Part shown: one piece after another, positions 21,274 through 51,811 of the stretch
Layout: each line of letters opens with the position of its first letter
How positions within the stretch are numbered: position 1 is the first letter of the stretch
Origin: an uncultured Methanoregulaceae archaeon
GTDB taxonomy: Archaea > Halobacteriota > Methanomicrobia > Methanomicrobiales > Methanospirillaceae
Assembly (NCBI GenBank): GCA_963705255.1
Contig: OY970061.1
Span: forward strand, 1,312,001-1,376,000
DNA: 64,000 nt
Direction of reading: 5' to 3'
Made by a program: the position numbers and the translations under genes
The notes under the pieces: model-generated
Told to the model about the DNA's origin: nothing
What the model saw: only the letters and a program-made list of their open reading frames with translations
The model's database searches: none

Positions 21274-21357
21274 GAGAAGTCCTCAAACTTCGAGTTCCGA
21301 AGAGGTTCATCGGAACCTAGAGGATGAAAAGAACTCGTCAGAGTTCTTCGAGTGCGG
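21274..21357 (+). repeat. copy (~1.5 units) of the GA-flanked double-hairpin module
   Basis: TTCCGAAGAGG[hairpin]AGAGGATGAAAAG[hairpin]CTTCGA matches the units at 48345-48673. Confidence 0.75.
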
Positions 21358-21603
21358 CGGCGTTCATCGCATCGGAAATGTAAGTGTACTCATCTCGTCG
21401 AAATATCTGAATAATGTGTTTTGGCGGAATACCCAGTGCTCTCTGAAAAGCACATCCTTACAATTATCTTGTATTGGACGATAAACCATCTGAATCTTCG
21501 ATATATATGTGTGCAAAATTTTCCCATGTCCACCATTTTCATTTATTTTCCTTTTCATTCCGGCACCACCCTTAATACCCCCCGGCACTGACTCTCCTCC
21601 GGC

Positions 21604-32991: not shown

Positions 32992-33201
32992 CGGGATGAT
33001 TCCTCATCCAATCTGGGAAGCGATTCGGGTTATAGTTTTGCTGAACCGAGTGGTTCGTCAGAACCACGAGGTCGAGAAGCCATCAGGCTTCGAGCGCCGG
33101 ATGGTCTGTTACAACCGCGAGACTCCCCGGGCAGGATCGGATGCCCTTCCCGCGCCCCCAAATATCAACTGTTATCTCGCAGCAGGGCATACCTGATCTC
33201 C

Positions 33202-45515: not shown

Positions 45516-48343
<2,828 letters not shown>

Positions 48344-48344
48344 G

Positions 48345-48673
48345 GTGTTTCTCCTCATCGTAGTCCTGATGGACCAACCGGAAGTCGAAGGTTCGGCTTC
48401 GCCTCCCTCTTCTTACTTGTAGTTCGGACGAAACTTTTCGGGTTCGAAAAAGTGCTGCGCACTTCTTCTCATCCTCAAGATGCTGACATCTTTCTGAAAG
48501 TCGAAGATTACTTCGTAAATCTTCTCCTCATCGTGGTTCTGATGAACCACTCTGATTTCAAAGAACTGGTGCGCAGTCCTTCTCGTTGTCGAGGTCCCGA
48601 TGGACCTCCCGCAGTTCGAAGAAATGCATCGCATTTCTTCTCATCCTCGAGGCGCTCCGCGCCTCTTCGGAAA
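48345..48673 (-). repeat. tandem array (~5.5 units, period 57-59 nt) of a GA-flanked double-hairpin module; candidate structured RNA
   Basis: Anchor TCGAA/TCAAA on + strand at 48385, 48444, 48501, 48558, 48616; each unit has two hairpins with different but complementary stems. Confidence 0.85.
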
Positions 48674-48744
48674 AGCCATGACCCGGAGTCGAACCGGGAT
48701 CCGCTGATCTGCAGTCAGCCGCGTGGCCGTTCCGCCATCATGGC
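48674..48744 (-). tRNA. tRNA-Cys(GCA), copy 1
   Basis: GCCATGA/TCATGGC acceptor, GCTGA-CTGCAGA-TCAGC, CCCGG-TTCGACT-CCGGG, U73, G37. Confidence 0.96.
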
Positions 48745-48757
48745 ACCTTTGTCTGGA

Positions 48758-48808
48758 TTCACGATTGTGAATCTGACTATACTAGATAACAATTGTGAAT
48801 ATTTATAA
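48758..48808 (-). promoter_or_regulatory. tRNA-Cys1/pscS promoter (TTATAAAT) with two downstream palindromic operator candidates
   Basis: TATA at 48801-48808 on minus; TAACAATTGTGAA 48787-48799; TTCACGATTGTGAA 48758-48771. Confidence 0.65.
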
Positions 48809-48988
48809 GTTCGGTCATCGGCAGAATTTTCCTGATCCTGTTCTCATGTCGTGAATTTTCTTTGGTTTCAGGTTCCAAGGTCTTCTCTGGGAATGATCAT
48901 CGGGAAAGGCAGGCCGGACGCGCCAACAAGCATGACAGGAGATGTGATGGGCAGAAAAATTAATGCAGAAAGACGGTGAGCAAAAACA

Positions 48989-49035
48989 AGGAGAGAATCA
49001 TCCTCTCCTCATCATGGTTCTGATGAACCGCTCGT
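48989..49035 (-). repeat. single double-hairpin unit directly 3' of tRNA-Cys copy 2
   Basis: Minus strand GA-GCGGTTC-ATCA-GAACCAT-GATGAG-GAGAG...CTCTC. Confidence 0.7.
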
Positions 49036-49037
49036 AG

Positions 49038-49108
49038 AGCCAACGCCCGGAATCGAACCGGGATACGCTGATCTGCAGTCAGCCGCGTAGCCTTTCCGCC
49101 ACATTGGC
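49038..49108 (-). tRNA. tRNA-Cys(GCA), copy 2
   Basis: GCCAATG/CGTTGGC acceptor, same anticodon arm as copy 1, CCCGG-TTCGATT-CCGGG. Confidence 0.96.
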
Positions 49109-49227
49109 ACCTGTTCCGGCGATTGTTGTCGCCATACCATAGTAAGACGGGGGATATTTAGAGGCTGATCTGTGGGCGGGATTTGCCGCAAATCCGGGTT
49201 GGGGGGCTTTGCCCGTGAATGCCGGAT

Positions 49228-49312
49228 CAGGTCCAGATGAACCACTCTGGAAGCAGAAGGTTCGCCTTCGCCTCCCTTCTCATCCTCGAGGTGCTGCGCA
49301 CCTCATCGGAAA
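49228..49312 (-). repeat. ~1.5 units of the double-hairpin module upstream of tRNA-Cys copy 2
   Basis: TTCCGAT-GAGGTGC-GCA-GCACCTC-GAGGATGAGAAGG...CCTTC...GAGTGGTTCATC. Confidence 0.78.
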
Positions 49313-49322
49313 CCGAAATACT

Positions 49323-49335
49323 TAACAATTGTGAA
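49323..49335. promoter_or_regulatory. third operator candidate, upstream of the HTH gene
   Basis: Exact 13-nt repeat TAACAATTGTGAA of 48787-48799. Confidence 0.6.
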
Positions 49336-49390
49336 CTTCCATTCCATAATGGTGATCCACTATGAGGGATCGTTTTTGTCGTAACCACCA

Positions 49391-49644
49391 ATGAGAATAG
49401 CACCATACGAAGGATCGGGCACCTGCCGCCATCGGCAAAGCTCGTGTACAAAGTGCTTGAACACGGCGGCCAGCTGACCCAGAAGGATCTCATCCGCGAG
49501 ACCTCCCTGCCTTCCAGGACCGTGCGCTATGCATTGAACCGGCTGAAGGCAGAACAGATCCTTGTCGAGCGCTATTATTTCAGTGACGCCCGGCAGAGCC
49601 TGTACGGCCTGAACCCGCCACGCCAGGAGGTGGTTGCCGTATGA
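49391..49644 (+). CDS. small MarR-like wHTH regulator (apparent 1-nt deletion near 49410)
   Basis: LPPSAKLVYKVLE..GQLTQKDLIRETSLPSRTVRYALNRL; ATG 49391 joins this frame if one A is restored. Confidence 0.8.
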
Positions 49645-49850: not shown

Positions 49851-50270
49851 CTAAGTCGGGCCATTTCCGAAGCTTGCATCAATCCACCGGATGATCTCGT
49901 CCCGCACCTGCCGGAACCCGGCCCGGACTTCCTCATCGGAGCCGGTGAATGCCGAAGGGTCCGGAAATCCCTGGTGAATTTCCTCCTTTGCGCCGGGAAA
50001 GAACGGACACGCTTTCTGTGCAGAATCGCAGACCGTGACAACCGTCTCAATTCCCTTCCCGTAATGTTCATCGATGAGCTTCGAGCGGTGGCTTGAGATG
50101 TCGATCCCGATCTCCTTCATCACCTCGATTGCCATCGGGTGGACCCGTCCTGGTTCGGTCCCGCCGCTGAATACCTCGTAGCGGTCACCGTACTTTTCCT
50201 TCATGTACCCCTCCGCTATCTGTGAGCGGGCGGAGTTGTGGGCGCAGATGAACAGGATCTTCTTTTTCAT
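49851..50270 (-). CDS. arsC: arsenate reductase (LMW-PTP type)
   Basis: LFICAHNSARSQIAE, TVCD, CPFFPG, FPDP. Confidence 0.93.
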   Translation of the reverse strand: MKKKILFICAHNSARSQIAEGYMKEKYGDRYEVFSGGTEPGRVHPMAIEVMKEIGIDISSHRSKLIDEHYGKGIETVVTVCDSAQKACPFFPGAKEEIHQGFPDPSAFTGSDEEVRAGFRQVRDEIIRWIDASFGNGPT

Positions 50271-50288
50271 GATTACACCAGTATCATT

Positions 50289-51365
50289 TCAGCGCAGCGA
50301 TGGGCTGCACGTACCGTCACTCTTTCCGCCATACCATTTCTTCCTGAGCCAGAGCGAGACGTTCACCAGCCCGATCAGTACCGGCACTTCGACGAGAGGG
50401 CCGATCACCGTGGCAAATGCCGCCGGTGATGCGATACCAAAGACGGCAATGGCGACTGCAATCGCAAGTTCGAAGTTGTTGGACGCAGCGGTGAAGGAGA
50501 GCGAAGCCGACTTCTGGTAATCGACCCCGAGACGGTGGGCCATCCAGAAGCTTGCAAAGAACATGATGACAAAGTAGCAGAGCAACGGGATCGCGACCCG
50601 TACCACATCGAACGGGACGTTCACGATGTACTCTCCCTTGAGGGAGAACATGACGATGATGGTGAAGAGCAGGGCAATAAGGGTGATCGGCGAGATCTTC
50701 GGGATGAAGACCTGCTCGTACCATGCCTTCGACTTTACGCGGAGGAGCGCGTACCGGGTGACCATACCGGCAATGAAGGGGATGCCGAGATAGATGAAGA
50801 CGCTCCCGGCAATCTGGACGATCGTGATCGAGACTGTTGAGCCGGCCCCGATGCCGAGCAGAGGCGGCAGGAACGTGATGAAGAACCAGGCATAGACGGA
50901 GTAGAAGAAGACCTGGAAGACCGAGTTCAGTCCCACGATTGCGGCGCAGTACTCACAATCTCCTTCAGCGAGATCGTTCCAGACGATCACCATCGCGATG
51001 CAGCGGGCGATGCCGACGAGAATCAGGCCGTACATGAGCATCGGCTGGTCGCGGAGGAAGACGATGGCAAGGACAAACATCAGGACCGGCCCGACAATCC
51101 AGTTCTGGACGAGCGAGAGCCCGAGGATTTTTGTGTTCTGGAATATTTTCGTGAGTTCCTCGTACTTCACTTTCGCGAGCGGCGGGTACATCATGAGGAT
51201 GAGGCCTATCGCTATCGGGATCGAGGTTGTACCGATCGAGAGACCGGTGATGAGTGCCGGTACTGCGGGCGAAAAGTACCCGATGCCGATACCGGCTGCC
51301 ATGGCAAGGAAGATCCAGAGGGTCAGGTAACGGTCGAGGAACGAGAGGTGTCTGGTGGTTTCCAT
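50289..51365 (-). CDS. acr3: ACR3 arsenite efflux transporter
   Basis: [45 protein letters not shown]. Confidence 0.95.
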
Positions 51366-51376
51366 AGGTATCATCT

Positions 51377-51811
51377 TTACAGGATCTTCTCAAGGATATC
51401 TGCAGCATCCCGGACGAGCGGCATGCATTTCGTAACGAAGAGTCCGTTATCGCGTGCCCGTGCAAATTCTTCCGGGTTGCCAAGATTGTAGCCGAGCAGT
51501 TCCGTGCAGTTGATCGAGCCATTCTTCTCAGTAAACCCGTGGATGAACTGCCGGACAAGGGCCCGCGTCTTCTCGGTTGCGACATCGTCGTCCGCTACGG
51601 TCTTCCCATATTTCAGCCCGATCACCAGGATTGCTCCGGATACGGCCCCGCAGATATTGCCAGTCTTCGAGATCCCGGCGCCGAAGCCGCACGCAATCTT
51701 TTTTGCCGTATCAGGGTCCAGGCCCAGATCTTCGGAAAATGCTGAAAATACTGCAGCAGAACAAGTGAACCTCTTCCCGTAACTGGCCACTGCTTCATCA
51801 GATTTTGTCAT
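51377..51811 (-). CDS. C-GCAxxG-C-C family redox protein
   Basis: [27 protein letters not shown]. Confidence 0.9.

Follow-up and report, generated by a model that had tools for sequence, protein, structure and literature searches.

Introduction

Short imperfect palindromes that occur in at least 100 copies, lie outside genes in both orientations, cluster into mosaics and would form stable hairpins as RNA are characteristic of bacterial genomes, where they are described as repetitive extragenic palindromes (REP), bacterial interspersed mosaic elements (BIME) and REP doublets forming hairpins (REPIN), and where their copy number is lineage-specific and their turnover fast. A repeat with all of these properties surrounds two tRNA-Cys genes, tRNA-Cys1 and tRNA-Cys2, in the 64,000-nt stretch analysed here (positions 1,312,001-1,376,000 of contig OY970061.1, assembly GCA_963705255.1; hereafter the window), which belongs to the 2.60-Mb one-contig genome (54.6% G+C) of an uncultured Methanoregulaceae archaeon. 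Its module of two hairpins differs from bacterial REP and BIME elements in having an archaeal host, in a strong link to one tRNA species, and in the absence of the REP-associated tyrosine transposase (RAYT, Y1 type) from 10 of the 10 genomes searched. It also has a fixed hairpin pair, an invariant purine linker and GA flanks, whereas a REP is a single palindrome tagged by GTAG or CGTC (tags as in the title of PMC3733652); neither tetranucleotide ends the stems of the archaeal repeat, which are flanked by a conserved CYGA before and GAnGA after. Members of this order are missing from the accessible part of a 2025 survey of REP elements that includes archaea (PMC12306157), and the literature searched contained no account of the present family.

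Other known systems resemble the module in part. Streptococcal BOX-type repeats are also built from a few interchangeable modules of varying number, are non-coding and lie within transcripts, but they have no sequence relation to the repeat described here, belong to another domain of hosts and, to our knowledge, have no link to tRNA. tRNAs and tRNA-like elements serve as processing signals, as in the maturation of the 5' end of 5S rRNA by tRNase Z in Haloferax and in the t-elements of plant mitochondria. In the loci considered here tRNA-Cys lies directly before 5S rRNA or before the gene for O-phospho-L-seryl-tRNA:Cys-tRNA synthase (SepCysS), so that cleavage by tRNase Z would create the 5' end of the downstream RNA, and the module sits at that joint; unlike such signals, it is not tRNA-like and its presence is optional. 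In the thrS operator of Escherichia coli and in T-box leaders, mimicry or sensing of tRNA gives feedback control. The array behind tRNA-Cys1 is comparable in that its hairpins, some with the anticodon triplet in the loop, stand in the leader of the gene of the matching aminoacylation pathway; it differs in that the loops are triloops, GCA is neither conserved nor typical, and the array is absent from most orthologous loci. Finally, Mukai et al. (2017, PMC5424206, in the part available) describe clade VII SepCysS genes with a fused N-terminal SepCysE-like domain that are accompanied by sulfur genes and by a gene for tRNA-Cys. The window resembles such loci in gene content, with tRNA-Cys, a long SepCysS, a Cys/Met-metabolism enzyme dependent on pyridoxal phosphate (PLP) and a gene read as MetX-like; the available part of that account mentions neither a repeat array nor a spacing of 10-16 nt.

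In this paper we describe the unit structure of the repeat, its bimodal copy number among relatives, its link to tRNA-Cys and the absence of RAYT. With a probability of about 0.6, we read the module as the unit of a REP/BIME-like mosaic intergenic hairpin repeat of high turnover, whose founder or preferred site is the trailer of tRNA-Cys. On this reading the family is active in one subclade of this methanogen genus.

Results and discussion

Structure of the unit

Copies were collected with a regular expression and nhmmer, and a covariance model (R1) was built. The alignment contained 52 copies, consisting of 49 representatives of 80 strong matches, with near-identical copies collapsed, and 3 copies from the window. 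The unit is about 57 nt long and is composed of a CTTCGA box, a spacer of 2-3 nt, a first hairpin, the invariant purine linker GAnGAnGAGAA, a second hairpin with a GAA/TTC base, and a TTCGA end. The two hairpins are alike, each having a stem of 7-10 bp, mostly an NTCA loop (ATCA, GTCA or TTCA in most cases), and near the base a G-A/A-G mismatch pair that is closed by one to three further pairs. These closing pairs covary, as determined by RNAalifold and pair counting, both in the first hairpin (UA 14, CG 13, GC 6, AU 3) and in the second (GC 21, UA 8, UG 5, CG 2). Over the 18 modelled pairs and 52 copies, 91% of cells are paired, compared to 77% in shuffled alignments, and both sides have changed in 140 cells, compared to 39.7; such changes are found at 13 of the 18 pairs, and none of 500 shuffles reached the observed value of either measure. 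The copies in the window belong to this two-hairpin family: R1 matches the unit upstream of tRNA-Cys2 at 49236-49325 on the minus strand with 47.7 bits (E=9e-18), and the units of the array behind tRNA-Cys1 with up to 75.4 bits, at E-values in the window down to 1e-29.

These scores, together with the strong covariation, leave practically no room for the idea that the hairpins are chance palindromes or part of a 73-residue open reading frame (ORF; 48413-48634, minus strand). The ORF has an ATG start and spans units 1-5 of the array, but the unit length of 57-59 nt is not a multiple of three, the frame shifts between units, and the stretch is absent from most relatives. Covariation, the presence of at least 138 copies in the genome and the absence of the array from most orthologous loci refute this reading, and the ORF, which starts with two Cys codons, was taken as spurious in view of its frame shifts relative to the unit and its loss in relatives.

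An Rfam scan of 48200-49500, permissive threshold included, returned only the two tRNAs at threshold, and no family matches the repeat. A K-turn has a 3-nt bulge next to tandem G-A pairs, and box C/D small RNAs carry C and D boxes with guides of 12 nt. L7Ae, or some protein like it, might accordingly bind the GA-flanked hairpins as sites of the K-turn or C/D-box kind. This is suggested by the CYGA box before the first hairpin and the GAnGA box after it, by loops that read TGATGA on the opposite strand, and by Rfam, in which 49265-49310 weakly matches the C/D-box RNA sR34 (E=2.3; 17.6 bits, threshold 40). We regard this as very improbable, since the base right after GA covaries with the base right before it, which places the G-A pairs in a continuous helix with no 3-nt bulge, the 12-nt guide spacing is absent, no Rfam threshold is reached, and the copies have no orientation bias relative to transcription. 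A K-turn register with a 3-nt bulge was tried for the alignment and dropped, as the covariation shows a continuous helix.

Number and context of copies in the genome

nhmmer found 172 matches in the genome at E<0.01 (minus strand 92, plus strand 80), and R1 found at least 138, a lower bound obtained with 150 of 1696 candidates scored. By approximate context counts, 93 of 98 strong copies are intergenic and 63 of 1919 gaps (3.3%) are occupied. Convergent gaps are occupied more often than expected (26 versus 15) and divergent gaps less often (11 versus 15.7; p=0.0045). In co-directional gaps, 15 copies lie in the sense of the genes and 21 opposite to it, so there is no orientation bias, and no bias with respect to the replication strand is visible across eight genome bins. 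A first-pass annotation of this DNA had suggested a role specific to cysteine. The test which that annotation itself proposed gave a mixed outcome. The many copies in random orientation remove a general Cys-specific function, yet the enrichment at tRNA-Cys described below (3 of 3 versus 0 of 44 other tRNA genes) is real.

BIME clusters alternate in orientation and REPINs are inverted pairs. Copies of the present family are solitary or form head-to-tail arrays (purely so at genome positions 2461043-2461300 and at the tRNA-Cys locus), inverted pairs, and clusters that are inverted or mixed (for example 406699-406906 and 1282266-1282466). At 16 places in the genome they are part of composite non-coding mosaics of 300-470 nt that contain no ORF, and a search for a larger autonomous element around the near-identical subfamily found only these mosaics, probably the family's youngest form and its most active one. 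The mosaics (for example 233375-233735 and 1026893-1027361) combine the unit with other hairpin blocks rich in C- and G-runs and recur with high identity. Miniature inverted-repeat transposable elements (MITEs) are marked by terminal inverted repeats and a target-site duplication. Many solitary copies have a CTTCGA box at both ends, which could be a duplication, a target or the remnant of a neighbouring unit.

Copies around tRNA-Cys1 and tRNA-Cys2

The features of the locus, and the two solitary copies elsewhere in the window, are as follows.

49037-49108 (start 49037/8), minus strand: tRNA-Cys(GCA), copy 2 (ARAGORN; Rfam tRNA model, 56.8 bits)
49004-49036, minus strand: truncated half-unit directly 3' of tRNA-Cys2 (sequence; nhmmer, model positions 12-42; R1, 18.6 bits)
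48981-49008, minus strand: terminator-like hairpin of 6 bp and T-run in place of the remainder of the unit (sequence; fold z=-4.6)
49256-49312, minus strand: full unit upstream of tRNA-Cys2 (R1; repeat families D2 and D5; fold)
49228-49255, minus strand: degenerate start of a further unit, spacer and imperfect first hairpin (family D4, 90% identity to array unit 3; fold)
49323-49335, minus strand: copy of the TTCACAATTGTTA box beside the upstream unit (sequence)
48674-48744, minus strand: tRNA-Cys(GCA), copy 1, linked to SepCysS (ARAGORN; Rfam)
48757-48810, minus strand: putative promoter of tRNA-Cys1, with a TATA-like box, the TTCACAATTGTTA box (48798-48786) and the palindrome ATTCACAATCGTGAAT (48772-48757), kept in 13 genome loci
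48349-48673, minus strand: array of 5.5 units between tRNA-Cys1 and SepCysS (sequence; families D1 and D2; R1; fold z=-6.3)
48615-48673, 48557-48614, 48500-48556, 48443-48499, 48384-48442 and 48349-48383, minus strand: array units U1 to U6 in this order, U6 being a half-unit
46979-48343, minus strand: SepCysS, long form with about 60 extra N-terminal residues (NCBIfam TIGR02539; Pfam SepSecS and Aminotran_5)
21282-21369, plus strand: solitary copy of the family (R1, 66.5 bits)
33030-33111, plus strand: solitary copy about 500 nt upstream of tRNA-Thr (R1, 50.9 bits)

The array 3' of tRNA-Cys1 amounts to 330 nt of hairpin units and ends at the ATG of SepCysS (48343), the linker of U6 supplying a Shine-Dalgarno-like GAGGAG 8 nt before it. 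The units are too diverged for Tandem Repeats Finder, which reported no array. The array RNA has a fold z-score of -6.3, and the two stretches that flank tRNA-Cys2 have z-scores of -2.7 and -4.6. As had been noticed in the first-pass annotation, the module thus directly follows both tRNA-Cys genes (behind tRNA-Cys1 at 48673-48349), while tRNA-Gly and tRNA-Thr of the window have no copy within 200 nt. The same annotation placed a whole unit right after the 3' end of tRNA-Cys2; the abutment is correct, but only a half-unit (49036-49004) is present, followed by the terminator-like hairpin and T-run. Read on the minus strand, this half-unit opens with 7 nt of lead-in (49036-49030), continues with a hairpin of 5 bp whose loop is ATCA (49029-49016) and closes with a purine linker of 12 nt (49015-49004), and R1 (48968-49051, 18.6 bits, E=1.1e-5 in the window) matches only the first half of the unit design. 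The hairpin end and T-run at 48981-49008 are kept in the nearest relative, L134. The roughly 1.5 units reported upstream of tRNA-Cys2 were found as a full unit (49312-49256) and a degenerate start (49255-49228), and both have the orientation of the tRNA. The full unit consists of a first hairpin with a GCA triloop (49304-49288), a linker (49287-49277) and a second hairpin of the GGGAGGC type (49276-49256). The second hairpin GGGAGGC...CCTTC is found in many copies genome-wide and recurs in array unit 5 with 82% identity over 38 nt (D5), so the earlier description of the hairpins as shuffled is a fair one. The TTCACAATTGTTA copy at 49335-49323 looks like the mark of a partial duplication of the promoter of tRNA-Cys1 and SepCysS, and its position beside the upstream unit also suggests local duplication and deletion at tRNA-Cys2.

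The GCA loops themselves, which had been read as anticodon mimicry towards SepRS, are present but rare: among 98 copies across the genome, 1 has such a loop in its first hairpin and 2 in the second (3 of 196 loops), and family loops are mostly ATCA or GTCA. On the mimicry hypothesis the GCA-loop hairpins would imitate the anticodon arm of tRNA-Cys, bind SepRS or SepCysS and exert feedback control. Two of the three GCA triloops in the genome do lie in the tRNA-Cys region, a GCA-looped second hairpin is found in modules behind tRNA-Cys of G002, L134, L135, G083 and G095, and the array sits in the leader of SepCysS. However, the loops are 3 nt long and closed by C-G rather than 7-nt anticodon-like loops, most orthologous loci have no array, and the orthologous hairpin in other relatives has a GAT, GAA, ACA, ACG or ATCA loop, a variety better explained by one hairpin lineage inherited in common than by selection for GCA. 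We consider mimicry scarcely credible.

Enrichment at tRNA-Cys

Of the 47 tRNA genes that ARAGORN predicts in the genome, three are for tRNA-Cys, the third being located between 23S and 5S rRNA. In a census of all tRNA genes of the source genome (G000), a unit in the same sense begins within 5 nt of the 3' end of 3 of 3 tRNA-Cys genes and of 0 of the other 44, among which the nearest copy is 59 nt away, at tRNA-Ala(TGC). The chance of finding 3 of 3 at a gap occupancy of 3.3% is about 4e-5, with exact abutment and sense left aside. Without exception, copies behind tRNA-Cys have the sense of the tRNA and begin 1-3 nt past its end. The pattern recurs in four further genomes of high copy number, G002, G083, G095 and G101. 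The numbers of tRNA-Cys genes directly followed by a unit are:

G000 (source genome): 3 of 3
G002: 3 of 3
G083: 3 of 4 (one by eye)
G095: 3 of 5
G101: 1 clear and 1 partial of 2
G018: 1 of 2 (one or two copies in the whole assembly)

Of the three readings offered by the first-pass annotation, a repeat preferring tRNA 3' ends is the nearest to these data, with the correction that the preference applies to tRNA-Cys and to none of the 44 other tRNAs. tRNA-Cys genes number four in G083 and five in G095, both high-copy genomes, and tRNA-Cys genes and repeat seem to multiply together, because tRNA-Cys has three copies here and five in G095. Aside from two CAT tRNAs called Met by ARAGORN, tRNA-Cys(GCA) is the only tRNA with three same-anticodon copies in the source genome.

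Distribution and turnover among relatives

G002 had 76 matches in an initial set of 30 relatives, the others having 0-9. Among 81 genomes of the genus, with about 54 candidates scored per genome, the distribution is bimodal: 14 genomes have at least 29 matches, 31 are without a match at E<=1e-6, and the remaining ones have 1-9.

The surrounding gene order is conserved: 13 of 14 genome loci, and 77 of the 77 metagenome loci that extend upstream, have a tRNA-Cys gene immediately before the long SepCysS (three more metagenome loci begin where the contig does). Of the 89 orthologous loci analysed, 57 have a short spacer (10-40 nt) between tRNA-Cys and SepCysS that contains a ribosome-binding site only. 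Units are found in 21 spacers, with one unit in 15, two in 1, three in 3, four in 1 and six in the source genome. The remaining 11 have a longer spacer with no nhmmer match, some resembling decayed units. In most relatives (L051-L062, L134-L213) only 10-16 nt with a GGAGG- or GGTGG-like site separate the 3' end of tRNA-Cys from the ATG of SepCysS, a spacing at which the SepCysS mRNA, once cut by tRNase Z, would keep about 10 nt of leader. A quick maximum-likelihood tree requires the module state to have changed at least 11 times, and branches with good support force only 2 of these changes.

L134 is 96.9% identical to the source genome over 3479 coding bases, with no gap. Its array lacks U2-U4 (a difference of 173 nt) and has three units, and its tRNA-Cys2 trailer holds a full unit and more, the source genome being about 87 nt shorter there. 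L135 and L136, which are close to each other, share the second hairpin and flanks of a single unit and have different first hairpins, which is the hairpin shuffling noticed in the first-pass annotation. Array unit 3 resembles a dispersed subfamily and not its neighbours in the array, so arrays seem to expand both by tandem duplication and by the import of units. In L183 and L186 inverted units lie inside the transcribed spacer. While the tRNA-mRNA unit is conserved, the array inserted in it is recent and unstable.

The rRNA operon and a possible role of the trailer

The third tRNA-Cys of the source genome lies at genome positions 1622440-1622760 (L088). In a survey of Methanomicrobiales rRNA operons (L090-L119), tRNA-Cys and 5S rRNA were both recovered in 28 of 30 loci. 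The spacer between them is 2-3 nt in 12 of the 28, a single hairpin of 21-57 nt in 7, and 85-113 nt in 9. A trailer with the order hairpin, GGAGAA, hairpin, TTCGA, of diverged sequence, is present in 7 of these 9 (7 of 28 loci, including the source genome), and also in G002, G001, G101, G095 and G083. Where 5S starts 2-3 nt after tRNA-Cys, processing of the tRNA 3' end could directly make the 5' end of 5S rRNA.

A role of the module in the 3' processing of pre-tRNA-Cys had been suggested from the abutment of unit and tRNA. As a needed role it is not supported, in view of the 57 of 89 SepCysS junctions of 10-40 nt that have no module, the plain T-runs that follow the second tRNA-Cys in four copy-poor relatives, and the 12 rRNA operons in which 5S follows tRNA-Cys at once. 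A broader version of this idea holds that the hairpin pair is a working part of tRNA-Cys transcription units, as trailer or leader RNA, and that the dispersed copies are its escaped progeny. After the tRNase Z cut the hairpins would stand at the new 5' end of 5S rRNA or of SepCysS mRNA, where they might act as a processing spacer, protect against 5'-3' exonucleases, or tune the translation of SepCysS, the linker of the last unit containing the ribosome-binding site. Such a function would suit the constant sense and 1-3 nt start of copies behind tRNA-Cys, the filling of the same position in the rRNA operon, in the SepCysS operon and behind stand-alone tRNA-Cys genes, and the retention, by many metagenome lineages, of one-unit trailers that each precede a ribosome-binding site of their own. 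Against it, the trailer is dispensable, with 57 of 89 SepCysS junctions and 12 of 28 rRNA operons essentially without a spacer; unit number varies from 0 to 6 among close relatives; inverted units occur inside the transcribed spacers of L183 and L186; and most copies in the genome show no orientation bias. We therefore regard a functional trailer as unlikely, though by no means negligible.

Origin and spread of the repeat

We favour instead the REP/BIME-like mosaic repeat, which would have multiplied and been lost quickly through duplication, deletion, insertion beside existing copies and gene-conversion-like swaps of single hairpins, with copying acting presumably on DNA, and which would survive mainly in gaps at the 3' ends of genes. 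The older two-hairpin trailer behind the tRNA-Cys of the rRNA operon is the likely founder. tRNA-Cys gene copies, of which high-copy species have 3-5 per genome, may carry the trailer along or regain it by recombination with the tRNA as homology, in which case the link to tRNA-Cys would be historical and mechanistic, not physiological, and the repeat itself would be neutral. The copies around tRNA-Cys2 would then be decayed remnants of local duplication and deletion. A copy that comes to lie inside a transcript is predicted to fold into stable hairpins, and after removal of the tRNA, SepCysS would here gain a structured leader of 330 nt. This leader may change the expression of SepCysS; relatives do not need it.

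Several observations weigh against this reading. The enrichment at tRNA-Cys, in number, sense and 1-3 nt distance, is stronger than a purely selfish model would predict. The two-hairpin trailer between tRNA-Cys and 5S rRNA spans three families, and its architecture is kept despite sequence divergence. The GA flanks belong to one strand only and are conserved to at least 90%, and G-U cells outnumber A-C cells (about 34 versus 13 by tally), an excess suggesting that one strand is under selection, in the form of RNA or of single-stranded DNA; these features of architecture and strand also speak for the working trailer discussed above. The ORF calls behind the context counts are home-made and crude, with 74% coding coverage. 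No mobilising enzyme was found: the RAYT-type Y1 transposase (PF01797) is missing from the 10 genomes searched, 7 of them high-copy, by a search whose positive controls gave matches in 6 of 14. Reverse transcriptase was found only in the source genome among five searched and is missing from G002. Finally, no clean pair of empty and filled sites with a target duplication was found outside the tRNA-Cys junction, in a comparison of two of four 2.5-2.6 kb regions around solitary copies with five genomes, where coding identity was 75-81% and synteny broke at the repeat.

TnpB-like domains occur in high-copy and copy-free genomes alike and do not track copy number, and so are uninformative. Viral contigs gave 0 matches to a degenerate 29-nt pattern of the repeat. 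The reverse transcriptase (528 residues; RVT_1, E=6e-10; class not assigned) lies at genome positions 315000-321500 (L214) next to a KilA-N gene and a small HicB-like gene, in what looks like a defence or mobile island, and odd variants of the repeat are found near it.

A combination of the two histories, in which the two-hairpin element is an old working RNA trailer of Methanomicrobiales tRNA-Cys units, in both rRNA and SepCysS operons, that escaped as a genome-wide repeat in one subclade, seems to us distinctly improbable. If true, it would describe a mobile element that arose from a tRNA trailer and spreads with no known transposase, a prokaryotic counterpart of tRNA-derived short interspersed nuclear elements (SINEs), with a retained role in setting the amounts of tRNA-Cys, 5S rRNA and SepCysS. 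If, on the other hand, the REP/BIME-like reading holds, the family would be an archaeal REP-like mosaic repeat that multiplies without the RAYT transposase which explains the bacterial ones, and its unusual habit, seen repeatedly, of adjoining the 3' end of just one tRNA species would make it a system for the study of how hairpin repeats spread in archaea. The 14 high-copy and 31 copy-free species of one genus are suited to phyletic profiling. Repeats of this kind reshape a tightly packed tRNA-mRNA unit, as with the 330-nt structured leader gained by SepCysS, and their hairpins should not be taken for riboswitches, small RNAs or leader peptides in annotation.

Neighbouring genes and other observations

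SepCysS scores 391.5 bits against the TIGR02539 equivalog model (O-phospho-L-seryl-tRNA:Cys-tRNA synthase; cut-off 365). It is followed by the gene for the Cys/Met-metabolism PLP enzyme and then by a gene with alpha/beta-hydrolase and CBS domains, which is read as MetX-like. A shorter SepCysS paralog, 62% identical to residues 81-452 of the window SepCysS, is located at genome positions 405380-406906, with three units of mixed orientation just downstream, which may be chance at a gap occupancy of about 3%.

The conserved stretch 48757-48810 probably acts as the promoter of tRNA-Cys1. In 13 loci comparable elements precede tRNA-Cys: L050-L061 have the TTCACAATTGTTA box and the TATA element, and L062 has a related palindrome. 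The order of a conserved TATA box, then TTCACAATTGTTA and the palindrome ATTCACAATCGTGAAT, upstream of the tRNA-Cys/SepCysS unit looks operator-like. A small ORF (49444-49644, plus strand) divergent from the tRNA-Cys2 region resembles a winged-helix regulator by eye, has no NCBIfam match, and might be a candidate regulator of the palindromic boxes. An exact repeat of 16 nt lies just upstream of it (49412-49427) and has its partner at 46753-46768, where the called ORF of the Cys/Met PLP enzyme encodes its N-terminal part. The adjoining cluster at 49851-51811 (minus strand) encodes a low-molecular-weight phosphatase/ArsC-like protein, an SBF/ACR3-like transporter and a C_GCAxxG_C_C redox protein, and is possibly arsenic-resistance-like.

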